Notes under the pieces: generated by a model
The model's input: only the letters and a program-made list of their open reading frames with translations
Database searches by the model: none
Told to the model about the DNA's origin: nothing
In this document: piece after piece, positions 10,086 through 62,785 of the stretch
Layout of the letters: each line of letters starts with the position of its first letter
How positions within the stretch are numbered: the stretch's first letter is position 1
Program-made: the position numbers and the translations under genes
NCBI GenBank assembly: GCA_023379025.1
Contig: JAMCTH010000010.1
Span: forward strand, 9,088-73,087
Direction of reading: 5' to 3'
Source: Patescibacteria group bacterium
Lineage (GTDB): Bacteria > Patescibacteriota > Microgenomatia > UBA10105 > UBA927
DNA: 64,000 bases

Positions 10086-11092
10086 AACTCACGACTGTCC
10101 AAAAGGCATACCTGGCTCTTATCACCGCCAATGTCATCTGGGGTGCGGCATCACCCATATTCAAACTGAGCCTCGAGCACATCCCGCCCTATACTCTTGC
10201 CTTCTGGCGTTTTTTCATAGCCTCACTTATCCTCCTCCCCTACGCCCTTATGCAGAAACCGGTACGGTTTAAGGAAAAGAAAGATTTACTGCTTCTTCTC
10301 GGATATGCCTTTTCCGGTATCACCATAAACATCCTGTTCTTCTTCTGGGGCATCCAGCGTACCTATGCCCTAAACGGCCCGATCATCGCCTCATCGGCTC
10401 CGATTGTCACGATGGTGTTTGCCATGCTCCTCCTCCGCGAAAAATTCCGGCTCCGTAAATTTCTGGGCATCATCTGTGGTTCGATCGGGATACTCACGAT
10501 CGTTCTTGAACCACTGCTTTCCAAAGGATTGGGAGGGACCGTCGCCGGCAACAGTCTGCTGTTTGTTGCCATGCTCGGAGCGGTCGGGTCAATGATCGTG
10601 GGACGGGCACTCTTCCGTCGGTACAACCCCCTGACGCTGACGTTCTGGATATTTACCGTCGGATGGGCCAGCTTCCTGCCGCTTGCGGTCTATGATGCCG
10701 TCTCCATCCCCAACCTCTACCGGTCCCTGCACCCTCTGGCGTACCTCGGCATTATCTACGGCGGATTTTTTTCCTCGGCTCTTGCCTATGCCTGCCTCAA
10801 CTGGGGACTGTCGAAAATTCCGGCAACCGATTCGTCGCTTTTTACCTACATTGATCCGGTTGTCGGCACGGTGCTTGCTACCATCCTTCTGCATGAGCCG
10901 GTCACGAAGCTGTTCCTTCTGGGAACGGTCCTCATTTTCGGGGGGATCTATGCCGCGGAAGGCCGGCTCCATTACCACCCCTTCGGAAAGCTGAGACAGG
11001 CATCACCTTCTCTGCCACTAGCTCCTCCCCAAGTGCGGGTCATCCCCAAGCGTGAGGCTGCTGCCGCGCTCGAACGGATATTTTCCAAATAG
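10082..11092 (+). CDS. EamA/DMT-family transporter (10 TM)
   Basis: 336 aa with two EamA repeats of hydrophobic helices; 4-nt overlap with hisS; about 45-aa hydrophilic C-terminal tail. Confidence 0.8.
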   Translation: MKLTTVQKAYLALITANVIWGAASPIFKLSLEHIPPYTLAFWRFFIASLILLPYALMQKPVRFKEKKDLLLLLGYAFSGITINILFFFWGIQRTYALNGPIIASSAPIVTMVFAMLLLREKFRLRKFLGIICGSIGILTIVLEPLLSKGLGGTVAGNSLLFVAMLGAVGSMIVGRALFRRYNPLTLTFWIFTVGWASFLPLAVYDAVSIPNLYRSLHPLAYLGIIYGGFFSSALAYACLNWGLSKIPATDSSLFTYIDPVVGTVLATILLHEPVTKLFLLGTVLIFGGIYAAEGRLHYHPFGKLRQASPSLPLAPPQVRVIPKREAAAALERIFSK

Positions 11093-11170: not shown

Positions 11171-11617
11171 TTAAAGTACTGCGAGCACTTCCCTGAGCTT
11201 GGTAAGAGTGTCAATATTGTTGACGTTGAACTCATCCGCTGCAATAACTAGCGCTGCTTCTTCGCACACTGGCACGGGGCTCTTAGCCGGATCATAGAAC
11301 ATGATGATGCAGGCATCACGGTTGACGAGACGTACATATCTCGCAAGATCCACCCCGGTCCGCAAGCTACCCTGGTCCACGAGACGTGGTAAATCCATGG
11401 ATTGCACCGTTTCATCGACGTTCTCGTTGACAATAATGACAACATTGGCGTTAACCAGATCTCTCAGAGATTCGGCAGGATACCATTCGAAACTCTCCGA
11501 ATCCAAATACAATGCTGCAGTAAGTACAACTTGTGCTCGATCCGCTGCAAGATCTGTATTCGCCTCAGGTTGCATAACTACAACGAGCATATCAGCTCTC
11601 ATTGTTTTACTCCTCAC
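11171..11617 (-). CDS. hypothetical protein
   Basis: 148-aa ORF (MRADMLVVVMQPEANTD...); alternative ATG start at about 11599; no motif confidently recognised. Confidence 0.55.
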   Translation of the reverse strand: MRSKTMRADMLVVVMQPEANTDLAADRAQVVLTAALYLDSESFEWYPAESLRDLVNANVVIIVNENVDETVQSMDLPRLVDQGSLRTGVDLARYVRLVNRDACIIMFYDPAKSPVPVCEEAALVIAADEFNVNNIDTLTKLREVLAVL

Positions 11618-11772
11618 TTGAACGCCCTTTTAATCTCCTTTTTGTCAACGAACTTGCCTTCTCTATTTACACGCAATTGTGTTTGAAAGCATCGTAAGTC
11701 TATAGGGTATTGGCCATTCTGTCAAACTCTCTCCGACTTCCCTTTTCCATGGATTTTTTGTACAATACGTCT

Positions 11773-12081
11773 ATGAAATCCAATATCCATCCTCAGTGGT
11801 TTCCGAATGCCCGGGTGTCGTGTGCGTGTGGCAATACCTTTACGGTAGGCGCAACTAAGGAAGTCATCCAAGTCGAAATCTGCTCCAAGTGCCACCCATT
11901 TTTCACTGGCGAGATGAAATTCATCGATACGCTCGGGCGCGTCGAACGCTTCCAGCAGAAACAGCAGGTTGCCAAAGTCGCTGCGGCAAGTCTTGCGGAA
12001 AAGAAAAAGAAAAAGAAGGAACGTGAAGAACAGCTCCGCACCCCGAAATCCCTCAAAGAAATGCTCATGGGGACTCAATAG
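11773..12081 (+). CDS. rpmE: 50S ribosomal protein L31 with Lys/Glu-rich C-terminal extension
   Basis: Track ORF 11710-12081; conserved L31 start [10 protein letters not shown]...CACGNTF...[10 protein letters not shown] begins at ATG 11773. About 35-aa tail [15 protein letters not shown].... Confidence 0.88.
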
Positions 12082-12135
12082 CAACACGAGCAATACACGT
12101 TACTTCGTTGCTTCGTAAACTTCATTTGCTTTTTT

Positions 12136-12175
12136 CGAACTAACGAACTAACGAATGAACGAACTAACGATGAAT
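12136..12175 (+). repeat. five tandem 8-nt repeats (CGAACTAA x3, CGAATGAA, CGATGAAT) overlapping the release-factor start codon(s)
   Basis: ttCGAACTAACGAACTAACGAATGAACGAACTAACGATGAAT; both candidate ATGs (12155 and 12169) lie inside the array. Confidence 0.7.
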
Positions 12176-12871
12176 CAAGACGTAGCTATTCTCGAATTCC
12201 GTCCGGGTCCGGGCGGCGACGAGGCCCGAATCTGGGCTGGTGATCTCATGCGGATGTATCTGCGTTATGCCGGGCTCCAAGGCTGGAAAACCGAACAGAT
12301 CAGCGACAATTCTATCCGCATCCGGGGGCCGCAGGCATTTACCAAACTGCAATATGAAGCAGGCACCCACCGCGTGCAGCGTGTGCCGACGACGGAGCGC
12401 CAGGGCAGAATCCACACCTCAACCGCGACCGTAGCCGTCCTGCCGGAAATTCCGGAAACCGAGATTGTCATACGACCGGAAGATCTGGAATGGGATTTCT
12501 ACCGGAGCGGCGGCAAAGGCGGGCAGAACGTCAACAAAGTAAGCTCTGCCGTACGCCTTCGTCATAAGCCGACCGGCATCATCGTGACCGCCCAGACGGA
12601 GCGCGATCAGTTTCAGAACCGTCAGATGGCCATGTCCCTTCTTCGCGGCAAGCTCTGGGAACAGGAAGAAATCAAAAAATCTCAGATGCTAAGCGAACAG
12701 CGCAGTATTATCGGCCGGGGTATGCGGGCGGAAAAAATACGCACTTACAACTACCCGCAAAACCGCGTGACGGACCACCGGATCGGCAAGAGCTGGCATA
12801 CCCTCGAGGATATCGTCAACGGCAGGTTGCAGAACGTAACGGAGGCGTTAAGCTCCGGCAGCCTTGGCTAA
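12155..12871 (+). CDS. prfA: class-I peptide chain release factor (RF1-like) lacking N-terminal domain 1
   Basis: 233-238 aa. Aligns to E. coli RF1 from about residue 107 onward. Codon-recognition region RVQRVPTTERQGRIHTS (PxT-type, PTT) and GGQ motif SGGKGGQNVNKV. Only 73 nt separate it from rpmE, so there is no room for domain 1. Confidence 0.85.
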   Translation: MNELTMNQDVAILEFRPGPGGDEARIWAGDLMRMYLRYAGLQGWKTEQISDNSIRIRGPQAFTKLQYEAGTHRVQRVPTTERQGRIHTSTATVAVLPEIPETEIVIRPEDLEWDFYRSGGKGGQNVNKVSSAVRLRHKPTGIIVTAQTERDQFQNRQMAMSLLRGKLWEQEEIKKSQMLSEQRSIIGRGMRAEKIRTYNYPQNRVTDHRIGKSWHTLEDIVNGRLQNVTEALSSGSLG

Positions 12872-12882
12872 CGAAATTACCG

Positions 12883-14061
12883 CTACTGGCTGCTTTGGTT
12901 TCCGAGGGTCACGGACACGGTAAGCGTCTTCCCGTCCCGCCAGAGCTTGACGGCAAGTGTCTGGCCGACTTTTGTCTTGCCGATGATTGCCGCCAGGTCG
13001 TTGGTGCCGCTTACCCTGGTGCCGCCGATATCCGTGATGATATCCCCGTTCTGAATCCCTGCCGTCTCCGCCGGACTCCCGGTCACGACATCCACGATAT
13101 ACGCCCCTTCCGGAACGTCGTTCATAATGGCAAGGTCTTTGGTCACCATCTTAAACCGTACCCCGAGATAGGGCCGGTTAAACTGACCGGTCTGGTTGAA
13201 GTTCTTCAGCGCATCCTTGATGACGTTGATCGGGATGGCGAAACCGATATTCTGTCCCTGCTGGGAGACTGCGGTATTGATGCCGATCACCTGCCCCGCG
13301 GAGTTGAGAAGCGGCCCGCCGGAGTTACCCGGGTTGATTGCCGCCGATGTCTGGATCACGTCATCAAGCCGTTCCACATACCCCTCATACGGGCTTCCGG
13401 CAGTGATGCCGCGCCCCAAGCCCGATACAACGCCGGTCGTCACCGTGCTCCTGAATTCCCCAAGCGCCGTACCGATGGCGATTGCCAGCTGCCCGACCTG
13501 TATTTTTGACGAATCCCCCATCACGACCGTCGGCAGGTTCGAAGCATCGATTTTAAGAATTGCCAGGTCATTGGCCGGATCGCGGTAGATTTTGGTAACG
13601 TCATAGGTCTTGCTGGTTGCCGTAATAATCCGGTACTTTGCCGTCGTATCCGATACGACGTGCTTATTGGTGATAATAAGCCCGTCGCTCTCAACGATAA
13701 AACCCGACCCGATGTCCTGCTCCTGCGGCTGGCTGTTCCCGGGAACCTGCTGAAAGGGAGCAAACGGGTCAAACGGATTGACCTGAAAATAGCTTTGCTG
13801 ACCGGACTGCGTAATCCCGACGGTCACAACCGCAGGGGAGGCTTTTTTCACGACATCGATCACGACGGATTCTTCGGAAACCACGTTCACCTTTTCCCGC
13901 CCGGCAGAAAGAGGAGGCGTTGTCAGCGCCTGCTCCGGTATATACCGTGAGATGCTGCCGGCAATCGAGGACCACTTGAGCCCGAATACTCCGGAACTTA
14001 CGAGTCCGCCGATGACCAAAACGATTGCGGCAGGGACAAGAAGCGCTTTCTGGTATTTCAT
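12883..14061 (-). CDS. htrA: HtrA/DegP-family serine protease with PDZ domain
   Basis: 392 aa. N-terminal TM anchor, trypsin-like catalytic region including GNSGGPLLN, and a C-terminal PDZ. Confidence 0.9.
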   Translation of the reverse strand: MKYQKALLVPAAIVLVIGGLVSSGVFGLKWSSIAGSISRYIPEQALTTPPLSAGREKVNVVSEESVVIDVVKKASPAVVTVGITQSGQQSYFQVNPFDPFAPFQQVPGNSQPQEQDIGSGFIVESDGLIITNKHVVSDTTAKYRIITATSKTYDVTKIYRDPANDLAILKIDASNLPTVVMGDSSKIQVGQLAIAIGTALGEFRSTVTTGVVSGLGRGITAGSPYEGYVERLDDVIQTSAAINPGNSGGPLLNSAGQVIGINTAVSQQGQNIGFAIPINVIKDALKNFNQTGQFNRPYLGVRFKMVTKDLAIMNDVPEGAYIVDVVTGSPAETAGIQNGDIITDIGGTRVSGTNDLAAIIGKTKVGQTLAVKLWRDGKTLTVSVTLGNQSSQ

Positions 14062-15388: not shown

Positions 15389-15450
15389 ACGCTTTCACCA
15401 TACCCGAATTCCATGAAAAAATCATGAATGCCGGTTCCCTACTCCTGCCC

Positions 15451-15693
15451 TCACGCACGGACGACAAACGGCAAAAGCGCGAGATGCCTTGCGCGCTTGA
15501 CCGTTCGGGTGAGTGCGCGCTGGTGTTTGCTGCAGAGTCCCGACCGCTCGCGCGAGAGAATTTTTCCGCGTTCGCTAAGGAAACGCGATAGTGAACCGGT
15601 ATCCAGAACATCCGGTGCCGTTTTCCCTTCACAAAACAGGCATACCTGCGCCACCGGTCTGACTTTCCTGATTTTTCTTGTTTTTTTCAGCAT
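15451..15693 (-). CDS. rpsR: 30S ribosomal protein S18
   Basis: 80 aa; CLFCEGK...[42 protein letters not shown] matches the S18 consensus. Confidence 0.92.
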
Positions 15694-15767
15694 ATTTCTC
15701 TCCTATGAAAGACAAAAACCGCCGTCAACTGCGGTACGTTTCATGCACATGCCCCCTGCCCTGACCA

Positions 15768-16331
15768 TCAAAACGGAATGTCATCCGGATTGACGTCTTC
15801 GTCTCCTGTCGGTTTCGGATTTTGCTGGGCCTGGGTCGGCGCACCATCACCCGCCCCGTGCTGCTGTTTTACCGGCTTGCCTGACTGCGGCTTCCCGCCG
15901 GCGTGTTGCGGAGCGGGTGTTTTTACGGCACTTCCTGTTCCCTCTCTGGCCTGCAGAGGGTCGGACCCTGTTTCATCCGCCACTATCCCCGGCCGGCGGG
16001 AATCAAGGAGGATCATATCCTCTATGATGACTTCCGTCGTGCTGCGCTGGTTGCCGTCCTGACCCTGCCACGTCGACGTCCTGAGTCTCCCCTCGACATA
16101 GACCTTCCGCCCTTTAGTCAGGAGCTGCCCACAAAGCTCAGCAAGCTTATTCCAGGCTACGACCCGGTGAAACTCCGTTTCTTCCTTTTTCTCGCCCGAT
16201 TCGGCGGACCAGGTGCGGTTCGTCGCAAGGCCGATCGTACAGACCGGTACACCGGTCGGCGTATACCGGAGTTCGGGATCACGCGTCAGGTTTCCGATAA
16301 GCATGACCTTATTGAGACTTCTGGATGCCAT
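15768..16331 (-). CDS. ssb: single-stranded DNA-binding protein
   Basis: 187 aa. OB-fold N-terminus (NKVMLIGNLTRDPELRYTPTG), Gly/Gln/Pro-rich linker, and the acidic C-terminal tail ending DDIPF. Confidence 0.92.
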   Translation of the reverse strand: MASRSLNKVMLIGNLTRDPELRYTPTGVPVCTIGLATNRTWSAESGEKKEETEFHRVVAWNKLAELCGQLLTKGRKVYVEGRLRTSTWQGQDGNQRSTTEVIIEDMILLDSRRPGIVADETGSDPLQAREGTGSAVKTPAPQHAGGKPQSGKPVKQQHGAGDGAPTQAQQNPKPTGDEDVNPDDIPF

Positions 16332-35942: not shown

Positions 35943-36428
35943 CTAGTCCTGCCTCACGTTCCGGCTCATCTCGGCCGATGCCTTCTTGGCCCGGAGACCA
36001 TAGAGGTCGCCTCTTTTCCGTGCAAAACTCATTTTTGGGAGCGTCTGTTTCTTCTCCCTGACCTCCTGCTTTTCCGTCTGCATCAGCTTTTCCTGCTTCT
36101 CTTTCTGAAGCTGTTCCCAGACGGAAAGTTTCTTTTCCGGCGGATTATGCGCTCCGGAAAGATACTCGAGCGCGCTCCGCGCAATCGCCCGTTTGGCTCT
36201 GATATCTTTTTCCGCCATCACGCGGTCAACCGGCGTTTCCGGGGCATGAGCCTTCTCCCCCTGACCCGCCTGAGGCAGATTTCCCTGACCCTGCGTTTTC
36301 TTCCCGCCTCCGGAACCCAGGCTCTCGAGCGCCTTGCCGACAATATCTTTGGGGACCGATGCAGCCTGCTTGACTACGTCTTTCCCGATATCCTCAAATG
36401 ATCCGATAATCTGACGGGGTATTGCCAT
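35943..36428 (-). CDS. hypothetical protein (Lys/Glu/Gln-rich)
   Basis: 161-aa hydrophilic ORF; G-rich segment SLGSGGGKKTQGQGN; coiled-coil-like C-terminal half. Confidence 0.5.
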   Translation of the reverse strand: MAIPRQIIGSFEDIGKDVVKQAASVPKDIVGKALESLGSGGGKKTQGQGNLPQAGQGEKAHAPETPVDRVMAEKDIRAKRAIARSALEYLSGAHNPPEKKLSVWEQLQKEKQEKLMQTEKQEVREKKQTLPKMSFARKRGDLYGLRAKKASAEMSRNVRQD

Positions 36429-36429
36429 A

Positions 36430-36940
36430 GAATATAAATCTCAAATCTCAATGACCAATGACCAATGACCAAGTTAATATGATGACTTAATAATTATCAG
36501 TACTTACGCAGTTATGCTTCGAACGAGGCGCTCCTTAGCGCCGAAGTGAGAAGTTCTCACTTCGTTCGAACAATATCAACATGCGTAAGTCCTGAGGACT
36601 TACGCATAGCATATTGGTTTAGACGGTTGCACCGTCATTCTGGCAAGCGAGTCATCGAGCGCGTCCAGAATCAGATTCCGGAGTCGCTTACGCTCCCCGG
36701 AATGACGAACTGCGTAAGTCGTGAATTATACTCGCGCAAATTTTAATAAGTTCTTCATTCTCACTCAATAATCCATCTATCTGCTGACCGTATGATTTGT
36801 TGAATGAATATATGATTAATCCTATTTTCCGGTAAATCCCGGACAATTCCGACAACTGCAAGAACAAATGTAAATATTCGTCCTTTTAGGTCATATCGCC
36901 GGTTTTTATTGGTCATTGGGATTTAGGTTTTGTGATTTCT
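36430..36940. repeat. about 500-bp AT-rich structured non-coding island bounded by imperfect inverted repeats, with nested perfect palindromes (possible MITE or structured RNA)
   Basis: Left end aaatctcaaatctcaATGACCAATGACCAATGACCaa (36437-36472) against right end ttATTGGTCATTGGgatttaggttttgtgatttc (36907-36939). Internal hairpins at 36517-36570 (ttcgaacga...tcgttcgaa enclosing ggcgctccttagcgcc and gaagtgagaagttctcacttc) and 36581-36607 (atgcgtaagtcc-tga-ggacttacgcat). CTTACGCA/TGCGTAAG recurs at about 36508, 36584 and 36711. Confidence 0.55.
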
Positions 36941-52649: not shown

Positions 52650-53213
52650 CTACACCTGCCCGAGCTCCTGTTCTTTCCGATCTCCCAATGCATCAAGTTC
52701 CGCGATCATTTCGTCCGTCAGCTCCTGGATTTTTTTCCCGGCAAGCGTGCGTTCATCCTCAGAGATTGTCCGGTCTTCTTCGTCTTTTTTGACATCCCGC
52801 ATCGCCTCGCCCCGGATCTGCCGGATCATGATCCTGCCGCCTTCCAGCTTCGTACGGGCAAGTTTGATGTATTCCTGCCTTCGCTCTTCGGAAAGCGCGG
52901 GAATAGTGATCCTGATGAGATCGCCGTCAACAACCGGCGTCAGCCCGGTGTTGGCCTCGAGAATCCCTTTTTCGATCTCCGGGGTGATCGACGGATCAAA
53001 CGGAGCGACCGCAATAGTCCGTGAATCCATCGCGGTAATCGTTGCGAGTTCCGTCAGCTTAAGCCGCTGCGAACCTCCATAGGCGGCAATCACGATGTGT
53101 TCAACAAGTGCGGGAGTGGCTCGGCCGGAATGGATGGACTGAAGGTCAGTCTTCGTGACATCTATGGCTTTGCGCATCCGGTCACGGGCCTGGTTGAGGA
53201 TAGTATCGATCAT
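52650..53213 (-). CDS. frr: ribosome recycling factor
   Basis: 187 aa; typical three-helix-bundle RRF sequence. Confidence 0.92.
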   Translation of the reverse strand: MIDTILNQARDRMRKAIDVTKTDLQSIHSGRATPALVEHIVIAAYGGSQRLKLTELATITAMDSRTIAVAPFDPSITPEIEKGILEANTGLTPVVDGDLIRITIPALSEERRQEYIKLARTKLEGGRIMIRQIRGEAMRDVKKDEEDRTISEDERTLAGKKIQELTDEMIAELDALGDRKEQELGQV

Positions 53214-53268
53214 CTATACGTAGTGTACGGGGAGATTGCGCTAGCGTCAAGATGCGTCAAGATGAGCG

Positions 53269-53721
53269 TTATAGTTCCAGCCGGGAAAATTTGGTCACCG
53301 TGATATTTTCCCCGACTTTGGCAATCGTCTGCTTCACCAGTGCCTCAATGGTGACCGAGCTGTCCCGGATATATGCGCTTTTCAGAAGCGCCGGGACGTC
53401 CCGGGGGTCCATGGAAGCCACCTGCAGCGCGACTTCGTGGGCAAGCGTTTTAAAATCATCCGTCCTGGCGACAAAATCCGTCTCACACCGGAGCTCGACC
53501 AGGACACCGATTTTACCGTTCGCATGGATGTATGACGCGATCAGTCCTTCTCCGGTTTCCTTCCCGGCTTTTTTTGCAGCTTTCTCCGCAGCACGCGACT
53601 CGATGAGTTTTTTGGCCTTTTCGTAATCACCGTCTGTCTCCTCGAGTGCCTCACGGCAATCGGAAACACCGGCTGATGTTTCAGCCCGAAGTTTTCTGAG
53701 ATCATCAAGAGATACTTGCAT
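53269..53721 (-). CDS. tsf: elongation factor Ts (short form)
   Basis: Track ORF 53269-53736; start MQVSLDDLRKLRAETSAGVSDCREAL (UBA-like N-terminus, TDFVAR core). About 150 aa, lacking the duplicated core subdomain of long EF-Ts. Confidence 0.85.
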   Translation of the reverse strand: MQVSLDDLRKLRAETSAGVSDCREALEETDGDYEKAKKLIESRAAEKAAKKAGKETGEGLIASYIHANGKIGVLVELRCETDFVARTDDFKTLAHEVALQVASMDPRDVPALLKSAYIRDSSVTIEALVKQTIAKVGENITVTKFSRLEL

Positions 53722-53755
53722 AGACGTAACTCGCAATTGTTATATTGCTCAATTG

Positions 53756-54610
53756 TTAAACGGCGCTCGTTGTCACTTTCTTCGGTCTCCCGCGCGTTTT
53801 CTTCCCGGGAGCCGCCGTGTCAGACGGGTCTGCTGCAGACTCTTTTTCATTAACGGGTACGCTTGTTGCTGAAGAAGCCCCGGGAGTCTGTATTTCCGTA
53901 TGCGCTTCTTTCTTTTCGGATTTCTCCCTGAGTTCTTTCCCTTCCTTGTATGCGGCGGCTATGGCATGGGTCAGAAGCTGTATGGATCCGACCGCATCAT
54001 CATTTGCCGGGATCGCATAGGTGATGTCCGTCGGGTCCGTATTCGTATCTACGATCGCGATGATCGGCAGGCCGGTACGTATCGCCTCGCGCACCGCTGC
54101 AATTTCCTTTTTGATATCCACGATATAGACCGCCTGCGGGGGATTTTTCATGGCTGCCACACCACCGTAATATGCCTGCAGTTTCCCGAGGTGCCGCCCG
54201 AGTTTTACCTGTTCGTGTTTCGGGTACTTTTTCCAGACGCCGCTGTCCCGATCCGCCATCATGCTATTGCAGGTATCGATGTTCTTTTTGATGCTGTCCC
54301 AGTTCGTCAGAAACCCGCCGATCCACCGGTTGGCAAAATAGGGAGCGCCTGCGTGCTCTGCCTCCTCTTTGAGGACTCCCTGCGCCTGCCGTTTGGTTCC
54401 GACCAGGAGAAGTTCCCCTCCCCCGGCGACGAGATCCCGTACATATGAAACCGCGCGGTCAAGACCCGCCTTTGTCTTGACCAGATCTATGACATGTATG
54501 CCGTCTTTTTCGGTGTAGATAAATGTTCGTGCTTTTGGGTGCCATCGTTCGGCTTTATGTCCAAAATGACATCCTGCTTCAAGGAGTTGCTGTAAGGTAA
54601 TTTCTTCCAT
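53756..54610 (-). CDS. rpsB: 30S ribosomal protein S2 with basic C-terminal tail
   Basis: Track ORF 53756-54625; start MEEITLQQLLEAGCHFGH. About 60-aa C-terminal extension ending GKKTRGRPKKVTTSAV (AT-hook-like GRP). Confidence 0.92.
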   Translation of the reverse strand: MEEITLQQLLEAGCHFGHKAERWHPKARTFIYTEKDGIHVIDLVKTKAGLDRAVSYVRDLVAGGGELLLVGTKRQAQGVLKEEAEHAGAPYFANRWIGGFLTNWDSIKKNIDTCNSMMADRDSGVWKKYPKHEQVKLGRHLGKLQAYYGGVAAMKNPPQAVYIVDIKKEIAAVREAIRTGLPIIAIVDTNTDPTDITYAIPANDDAVGSIQLLTHAIAAAYKEGKELREKSEKKEAHTEIQTPGASSATSVPVNEKESAADPSDTAAPGKKTRGRPKKVTTSAV

Positions 54611-54766
54611 AAAAAAACGGCGCAATACGCGCCTTCGACACTCAGTGTCCCGCGTATCTCTTTCATCCTCCGCTCGCCGGTCCGCCCCTGGCGGAAGAGA
54701 TACTCATGTGAGCGTGAGTACTCTATCTATTGTACCCCAAATCCTTTGATACCGCAAGCCGATGCA

Positions 54767-62437: not shown

Positions 62438-62785
62438 CTACGGGCACACATGATTGTGTACCCCGGAAAGGAGGCGGAACAAAGATCGGCAATTGCAGTT
62501 AAAAGCGTGTGGCCCCCTCTTTTTACGTAAAAAAGGGGGGGATACGAGGCAGGGGATCCCGAGCTCCAGCGAGGGAAATCGGACTTAGCAGAGAGAAAAC
62601 CGTAGGTTGTCTCTCCTAAAGCATCTGCGGAAACCCCTTGGCGGCACTTCCCGCCAGAAGAAAAACCGGAAAACGCTTTCGGTAACGGGAGCACTAAATG
62701 GCTTTTCACGAAGTCCGTATCTTCTTTATCATCACCATTCTGTCTTCTTTTCCCAATAATTGTTCGGGCATACTGGAGGTACTAT

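Follow-up and report, generated by a model that had tools for sequence, protein, structure and literature searches.

Can a bacterial release factor 1 (RF1) dispense with its N-terminal domain? To our knowledge, nearly every characterised bacterial RF1 and release factor 2 (RF2) has domain 1, the docking point for ribosomal protein L11 and for release factor 3 (RF3). The question is raised by a gene in a 64,000-nucleotide stretch of a Patescibacteria group bacterium genome (assembly GCA_023379025.1, contig JAMCTH010000010.1, positions 9,088 to 73,087; hereafter the window), where a first-pass annotation made from the sequence alone had recognised a class-I release factor of the RF1 type that lacks domain 1. 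We conclude, with a probability of roughly 85%, that this gene is a genuine prfA orthologue encoding an RF1 of domains 2, 3 and 4 only, and that domain 1 was lost reductively within Microgenomates.

Identity and domain content of the gene product

The absence of domain 1 is consistent across search methods. In a Pfam scan, the product matched only positions 98 to 194 of the 194-position PCRF model, positions 1 to 97 being absent, and the NCBIfam RF1 models align from model position 103/111 through to their end. A phmmer search against the PDB aligned the window protein with residues 110 to 343 of Escherichia coli RF1, 85 to 319 of T. maritima RF1 and 102 to 340 of T. thermophilus RF1; the best PDB sequence matches were RF1s (E = 7e-73), and identity to the RF1 chains was 44 to 47%. 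In a MAFFT residue map, amino acid 7 of the window protein (counted from the upstream ATG) corresponds to residue 107 of E. coli RF1 and the last amino acid, 238, to residue 350 of 360. The four approaches agree with the earlier observation that alignment to E. coli RF1 begins only at about residue 107, and the three-helix domain 1 (E. coli RF1 residues 1 to 106) is wholly absent.

The product consists of the three other domains. Domain 2, the N-terminal part of the codon-recognition superdomain, lies at 12173 to 12448 (+) and equals E. coli RF1 107 to 208 in the residue map and the alignments. It is followed by domain 3 for peptidyl-tRNA hydrolysis at 12458 to 12706 (+), recognised by the Pfam RF-1 domain (amino acids 101 to 209, model positions 2 to 116 of 116, E = 4e-37), and by an RF1-type domain 4 with the C-terminus at 12722 to 12868 (+), equal to E. 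coli RF1 302 to 350 and assigned from identities and a tree of domains 2 and 4. The PxT, GGQ, GGDEA and RIHTS motifs are all found with the expected spacing. The codon-reading segment RVQRVPTTERQGRIHTS (12371 to 12421, +) contains the tripeptide PTT at 12386 to 12394, P78-T79-T80 corresponding to P188-A189-T190 of E. coli RF1, and its P, T, E, G, R, H, T and S residues are invariant across a 36-sequence alignment; the GGQ at 12518 to 12526 (residues 122 to 124) corresponds to E. coli residues 233 to 235. With PxT, RIHTS and GGQ at their mapped positions, the codon-recognition region and the GGQ loop are intact, as the first-pass annotation had stated. Two peculiarities that it had stressed turned out to be ordinary. 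The tripeptide PTT had been set against a canonical PAT, but the motif is defined as PxT (PMC4530459), and orthologues carry PTT, PAT, PST or PKT and the other aligned RF1s PET, PVT or PLT. The missing C-terminal tail amounts to about 10 poorly conserved residues, and the full-length RF1 of Parcubacteria stops at the same point.

A smaller deletion accompanies the loss of domain 1. The domain-2 beta-hairpin is 10 residues shorter than in E. coli RF1 (E. coli residues ~151 to 160; nucleotides ~12302 to 12319 of the window, amino acids ~50 to 55), a deletion common to all the shortened RF1s of 232 to 331 amino acids and found neither in Parcubacteria RF1 nor in any RF2. An AlphaFold2 model built with 36 homologues (mean predicted local distance difference test score, pLDDT, 85) fitted best to ribosome-bound, open RF1, with a template modelling (TM) score of 0.85 and a root-mean-square deviation of 3.3 to 3.5 Å, and poorly to the closed crystal forms of RF1 (TM ~0.57).

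The sequence upstream of the gene leaves no place for a longer protein. The mechanical open reading frame (ORF) spans 12155 to 12871 (+; 238 amino acids), but the second ATG, at 12170, is the start in the NCBI record MCL4360572.1 and is an aligned methionine in the orthologues; the earlier length of 233 to 238 amino acids describes this ORF correctly, with the conserved start now placed at 12170. The likely coding sequence, supported by this conserved start and by the RF1 hidden Markov models, accordingly runs from 12170 to 12871 (+), begins MNQDVAILEF, ends with the TAA at 12869 to 12871 and encodes 233 amino acids. The NCBI record, annotated as 'PCRF domain-containing protein [Patescibacteria group bacterium]', is 100% identical to this product. 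The five additional in-frame codons (MNELT, 12155 to 12169, +) are not conserved among orthologues, and the upstream ATG at 12155 is probably not used. The gene for ribosomal protein L31, rpmE (11773 to 12081, +; Pfam Ribosomal_L31, E = 5.9e-26), ends 73 nucleotides before that ATG. Since the reading frame of the release factor has stops at 12116 and at 12149 to 12151 (TAA, 3 nucleotides before ATG 12155) and the rpmE frame ends at 12081, no arrangement can encode a longer N-terminus, and the earlier statement that there is no room upstream for a split gene holds.

The profile comparison placed the protein with RF1. Over its whole length it scored 320 bits on the RF1 equivalog model NF001859 and 312 bits on TIGR00019, against 208 bits on the RF2 model (cutoff 370), and it lacks the SPF motif of RF2. 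The models for rescue factors matched the GGQ domain only, with 71 bits for PrfH (TIGR03072, cutoff 166.65, amino acids 105 to 200) and 53 bits for ArfB (cutoff 100, amino acids 102 to 137), and PrfH in the PDB aligned only with residues 107 to 185. Identity in domain 2 was 53 to 62% to RF1s versus 31 to 43% to RF2s, and in domain 4, 43 to 64% versus 19 to 29%. A neighbour-joining tree of domains 2 and 4 placed the window protein inside RF1, with 100% bootstrap support for the split between RF1 and RF2.

The prfA locus, domain 3 and RF2 in related genomes

The short gene is conserved across a clade. Scanning a single genome for each GTDB species, extended by ±10 kb at each locus, gave 23 loci with an orthologue at 70 to 79% identity, belonging to Gottesmanbacteria, Roizmanbacteria, the 'Microgenomates group' and metagenome-assembled genomes (MAGs) mislabelled 'uncultured Gammaproteobacteria'. 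The orthologue is intact in 22 of the 23, with 231 to 238 amino acids in 21 and 225 in the remaining one (L022), and all 23 loci have an in-frame stop 0 to 81 nucleotides upstream of the RF1 start. An identical 233-amino-acid gene with the same layout of rpmE, RF1 and HtrA is present in two further, independent Logan assemblies from other sequencing runs, and the best 120 relatives listed from a collection of 5.8 billion proteins all have 230 to 253 amino acids, with a mode of 232. Identity across the related loci was higher for RF1 (70 to 79%) than for Ctp (48 to 64%), HtrA (58 to 70%) and YchF (57 to 70%) and, in nearly every locus, than for rpmE (56 to 75%), which argues for strong purifying selection on RF1.

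Two irregularities were seen among the related RF1 and RF2 loci. In one (L021, 2495 to 3252, on a 3.3-kb contig), the RF1 ORF ends after 47 amino acids while the similarity goes on, which reflects a frameshift or an error of assembly. Many GTDB representative MAGs (L005, L009, L012, L014 to L017, L021, L034, L035, L037 and others) are titled 'uncultured Gammaproteobacteria bacterium' (binchicken/TPA co-assemblies); with RF1 or RF2 and synteny typical of Microgenomates, these labels look wrong.

The gene order also identifies the gene as prfA. The order hisS, an EamA transporter, rpmE, RF1, an HtrA-type protease (-), the S41 protease Ctp (-), further genes and YchF (-) is conserved in related loci, and rpmE lies next to RF1 in 22 of the 23. 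The same adjacency is found in two Parcubacteria/Paceibacterota loci (L024 and L025), where a full-length RF1 of 357 amino acids, scoring 409 bits and above the RF1 cutoff, directly follows rpmE. Intermediates were recovered by searching the representatives of clusters at 50% identity and then with a profile; two of them, of 331 (P0126) and 303 amino acids (P0123), share the synteny of the window RF1. That rpmE adjacency is common to the full-length Parcubacteria RF1 and to these intermediates places the window gene at the orthologous prfA locus. A further ORF in the window (11171 to 11617, -, 148 amino acids), with the EamA gene on one side and rpmE on the other, has neither a Pfam match nor a counterpart in the 23 syntenic loci and is either a window-specific insertion or spurious; a 139-amino-acid gene is called there in two Logan assemblies.

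The lengths of the related RF1s are bimodal, at ~230 to 250 and ~290 to 320 amino acids. Several Microgenomates phyla have an RF1 of 281 to 345 amino acids, mostly ~300 to 317, the forms in Davies-, Pace- and Beckwithbacteria and in 'Microgenomates' MAGs having 281 to 317. The Amesbacteria form has 256 amino acids and those of Gottesmanbacteria, Roizmanbacteria and the window ~232. Of domain 1, the ~305-amino-acid forms keep just the final helices (PCRF 43 to 194), and as they start at PCRF 43, the region that aligns with helix alpha-2 of E. coli RF1, proposed to contact RF3 (PMC3677378), is already gone. The series looks like a stepwise loss of domain 1 from a true prfA. A more divergent 232-amino-acid form (P0130), with a start that overlaps the rpmE end, may represent an independent full loss of the domain.

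RF2 did not follow the same course. Both factors were recovered in two assemblies (RF1 L016 with RF2 L034, and RF1 L006 with RF2 L038), and RF2s of these assemblies and of sister genomes retain domain 1 and have 334 to 349 amino acids. The L034 RF2 carries SPF, has 336 amino acids and covers PCRF positions 5 to 192 of 194. Its score on the RF2 model is 428 bits (cutoff 370); a Levyibacteriota RF2 (L036) scores 420 bits on the same model, and the L038 RF2 has 331 amino acids from its first ATG, the region of the SPF motif being masked by X residues (~10220 to 10250). Another fifteen genes of the SPF type, on contigs of Microgenomates, unclassified Patescibacteria and Peribacteria, encode 334 to 362 amino acids. 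The first-pass annotation had suggested that a primary release factor lacking domain 1 would imply altered or RF3-independent termination; with domain 1 kept in RF2 of the same or sister genomes, termination as a whole does not do without the domain.

Stop codon usage is ordinary as well. In heuristic gene calls, the window has 34 TAA, 26 TGA and 14 TAG stops (TAG ~19%), and the 23 related loci have 202 TAA, 100 TGA and 70 TAG. A UGA frequency near zero, which would have suggested RF2 loss or recoding, was not found, and the genetic code is standard. As UGA is used as a stop, RF2 is required, and as UAG closes ~19% of the ORFs, so is RF1 activity. A tblastn search for prmC and prfC with E. coli PrmC and RF3, covering the window and 50 loci (~20 kb per genome), found RF3 only in two Ruminococcaceae loci and neither gene in Microgenomates DNA, a negative of little weight at this coverage.

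Domain 3 has a different affinity from the rest of the protein. Its identity (window 12458 to 12706) was 58 to 69% to Microgenomates RF2, 48 to 49% to Parcubacteria RF1 and 41 to 43% to other RF1s, and the L016 and L034 paralogues of one genome are 69% identical in domain 3 (10320 to 10580 in L034), versus 35% for domain 2 and 19% for domain 4. A neighbour-joining tree of domain 3 grouped the Microgenomates RF1s with RF2s from the Candidate Phyla Radiation (CPR) at 56% bootstrap, in conflict with the tree of domains 2 and 4. Gene conversion between RF1 and RF2 in domain 3 is known for Bacteroidia and Chloroflexi (Ishikawa, Kamikawa & Inagaki 2015, PMC4530459), and those cases show the same discordance between domain 3 and domains 2 and 4 as the window RF1. 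The pattern is suggestive of domain-3 gene conversion in Microgenomates, which would add a further lineage to the two published ones.

Proposed termination without domain 1 and alternative explanations

Work on E. coli indicates how such a factor might operate. In the work of Mora et al. (2003), as summarised in PMC1586002, E. coli RF1 truncated at its N-terminus remains codon-specific and active in release in vitro, works in vivo and no longer stimulates the nucleotide exchange of RF3. In cryo-electron microscopy, RF1 domain 1 bridges the N-terminal domain of L11 and domain 3 of RF3 (PMC3677378). RF3 itself has a patchy distribution with many lineage-specific losses, and its role in quality control is said to act via RF2 and not RF1 (PMC4342817); a referee remark printed with PMC1586002 holds that domain 1 apparently matters more for RF2. 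By analogy, the window RF1 would read UAA and UAG through PxT and domains 2 and 4 and hydrolyse peptidyl-tRNA with the GGQ of domain 3. Domain 1 would have disappeared by reductive evolution on the Microgenomates branch of the CPR, from ~357 through 281 to 345 and 256 to ~232 amino acids. The factor would bind the A site like the engineered deletion variant, make no contact with the N-terminal domain of L11 and, being beyond recycling by the bridge of domain 1 and RF3, leave the ribosome spontaneously. Termination at UGA and any role linked to L11 or RF3 would then be left to RF2.

The likeness to known factors has its bounds. The window RF1 has in common with canonical RF1 domains 2 to 4, PxT, GGQ, the GGDEA helix tip and RIHTS, whereas canonical RF1 has domain 1 and a full domain-2 hairpin, and the window protein has an RF2-like domain 3 and scores under the RF1 cutoffs. 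The deletion variant (Mora, Zavialov, Ehrenberg & Buckingham 2003, Mol Microbiol 50:1467; PMC1586002), as far as described in that summary, has the same architecture of domains 2 to 4, but it is an artificial protein in a host with RF3 and a ribosome adapted to full-length factors, whereas the window RF1 is natural, clade-wide and under selection and has in addition the hairpin deletion and the RF2-like domain 3.

Several points weigh against our interpretation. The window protein falls short of both curated RF1 cutoffs (320 < 400 for NF001859; 312 < 423.25 for TIGR00019), a shortfall that matches the ~100 missing residues; the other shortened Microgenomates RF1s, with 304 to 336 bits, are likewise under the cutoffs of 400 and 423. 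The RF1 activity, the specificity for UAA and UAG and the independence of L11 and RF3 are predicted from sequence and from the E. coli experiments. In the referee's quotation of Tate 1984 in PMC1586002, E. coli RF1 is reported inactive on ribosomes lacking L11, so the loss of the L11 contact may not be neutral. The genome scan of the relatives relied on peptide patterns from the window protein, which a divergent copy would escape, and with searches that covered the window and ±10 kb around the loci, a second full-length prfA or a separate domain-1-like protein could still lie elsewhere in the genome.

These points bear on two unlikely alternatives. The gene could be a paralogue of RF1 with an accessory or specialised role, such as rescue or quality control, the full-length RF1 being encoded elsewhere. 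The reach of the searches over the window and the ±10 kb loci and the scores under the equivalog cutoffs would allow this, and the natural family members without domain 1, PrfH and ArfB, are specialised factors (PMC1586002, PMC6514570). A paralogue would hardly be expected, however, at the rpmE-adjacent locus that holds the full-length RF1 in Parcubacteria, among graded forms of 331, 303 and 256 amino acids in the same synteny, or with fully canonical codon-reading residues; within the 64-kb window, tblastn with the protein found only the RF1 gene itself, and the second gene in both assemblies with two hits is RF2 and not RF1. We give this explanation a low probability, and a slightly lower one to a fission in which domain 1 is made as a separate small protein and meets the factor on the ribosome. 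Among the domains of release factors, domain 1 shows the least conservation (PMC1586002), a divergent stand-alone copy could escape tblastn, and several small ORFs of unassigned function lie nearby. Against fission, the intermediate RF1s show progressive shortening, and tblastn with domain 1 of two RF1s from Parcubacteria, one RF1 from Firmicutes and two RF2s from Microgenomates had no match at E <= 1, either in the window or in the ±10 kb around each of the 23 loci. Two ORFs were considered as a stand-alone domain 1 and rejected: the one at 11171 to 11617 (-), which is window-specific and has no Pfam match, and one at 15428 to 15793 (+), which has an implausible translation rich in Arg, Ser, Cys and Pro and no Pfam match.

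The two other explanations carry next to no weight. A single window derived from a MAG could hold indels, and the L021 copy is interrupted, which might point to a sequencing, assembly or annotation artefact or to a decaying pseudogene, that is, a normal prfA truncated at its 5' end or frameshifted. The identical gene in two other assemblies, the 22 intact species-level orthologues of 225 to 238 amino acids, the 120 listed relatives of 230 to 253, the stops at 12116 and 12149 and a conservation above nearly all neighbours speak against any error upstream that hides an N-terminal domain, and we regard this explanation as negligible. Just as improbable is a rescue factor of the PrfH or ArfB type that acts independently of the stop codon. 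PrfH has the same gross architecture, naturally without domain 1 and with a codon-recognition-type domain and GGQ, but PrfH has an altered 'anticodon' region and a gene partner of the rtcB type (PMC1586002, PMC6514570), whereas the window RF1 has the canonical PxT and RIHTS, rpmE upstream and no rtcB-like gene seen among the scanned neighbours. ArfB/ICT1 has a GGQ domain and a basic tail at the C-terminus but no codon-recognition domain, a make-up other than that of the window protein; with 71 and 53 bits on the GGQ domain against 312 to 320 bits for RF1 over the full length, the scores agree. The first-pass annotation had rejected this class as well, correctly but for an insufficient reason, the retention of the codon-reading domain, as PrfH keeps one too.

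A genuine, reductively shortened prfA remains the preferred explanation, and it invites a broader conjecture. A minimal, two-module RF1 might end translation at UAA and UAG with contact neither to the L11 stalk base nor to RF3, prfC being lost or restricted to RF2 and the factor-binding site of the ribosome having co-evolved. The length series of 357, ~305, 256 and 232 amino acids would then trace a domain becoming dispensable, and the homogenised domain 3 a joint adaptation of both factors to PrmC or to a changed peptidyl-transferase centre. We offer this as a tentative scenario that is rather less likely to be right than wrong.

Reduction of the translation apparatus is a known theme in these bacteria. 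The ribosomes of CPR bacteria show lineage-specific loss or shortening of uL30, bL9, segments of uL1 and rRNA helices (Tsurumaki et al. 2022, PMC9297842); the scope of that study is ribosomal proteins and rRNA, and the words release factor, RF1, prfA, RF3 and termination did not turn up when its main text was searched for them. We found no description of a truncated RF1 in CPR bacteria or Patescibacteria in the open-access literature, which does not prove that none exists. The RF1s described here would widen the picture of pared-down CPR translation from parts of the ribosome to soluble factors. The result could be foreseen from the E. coli deletion work; the instructive aspects are the natural, clade-wide case, the asymmetry between the two factors and the graded intermediates. 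A large clade that dropped domain 1 from RF1 only and keeps it in RF2 is a natural test of the laboratory result, and the asymmetry agrees with the referee's remark on the greater weight of domain 1 in RF2 (PMC1586002). The clade also provides natural minimal and intermediate RF1s for biochemistry and cryo-electron microscopy of termination independent of RF3 and L11. There is a practical side, too: because the shortened RF1s score under the curated cutoffs, the Prokaryotic Genome Annotation Pipeline (PGAP) names them 'PCRF domain-containing protein' or 'hypothetical protein', so that prfA may wrongly be scored as missing in Microgenomates by automated checks of pathways and completeness.

Leader repeats and gene content of the window

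The leader of the RF1 gene is repetitive. Tandem Repeats Finder (TRF) identified 4.4 copies of the 8-nucleotide unit CGAACTAA at 12136 to 12170 (+), just before the start, and roughly half of the 23 related loci have repeats of period 7 to 9 before RF1, their units differing (ATTGAAA, AATAATCC, TTTAGGA x11.7 and others). No Shine-Dalgarno-like sequence is visible in the RF1 leader or at the other repeat leaders, and a promoter and terminator scan of 11500 to 13000 gave nothing above shuffle expectation. A role of the 8-nucleotide repeat as a regulatory leader specific to RF1 was rejected, as similar repeats of period 7 to 9 stand before many other genes: the related loci contain 79 intergenic arrays in ~65 kb, many of them 2 to 15 nucleotides from a start codon (e.g. 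before ctp). Such leader repeats look like a lineage-wide feature. Others in the window are CAATGAC x3.4 at 36436 to 36472, before the ORF at 35943 to 36428, and a 10-mer at 53244 to 53264, before frr.

The rest of the window is an ordinary Microgenomates chromosome with dnaB, hisS, cysS, proS, dnaX, glyA and ahcY, a Dus-family tRNA-dihydrouridine synthase, a histidine kinase, a site-2 (M50) protease and one tRNA-Leu. It includes a block of rpsB (53756 to 54625), tsf (53269 to 53736, -) and frr (52650 to 53213). The elongation factor EF-Ts encoded by tsf has only 155 amino acids and matches positions 1 to 76 of the 204-position Pfam EF_TS profile; it is possibly another shortened translation factor of the same genome. 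A glmS ribozyme/riboswitch at 62493 to 62716 (+) matches the full-length Rfam model RF00234 with 51.3 bits, and since no ORF after it ends within the window, the presumed glmS gene would run past the window end.

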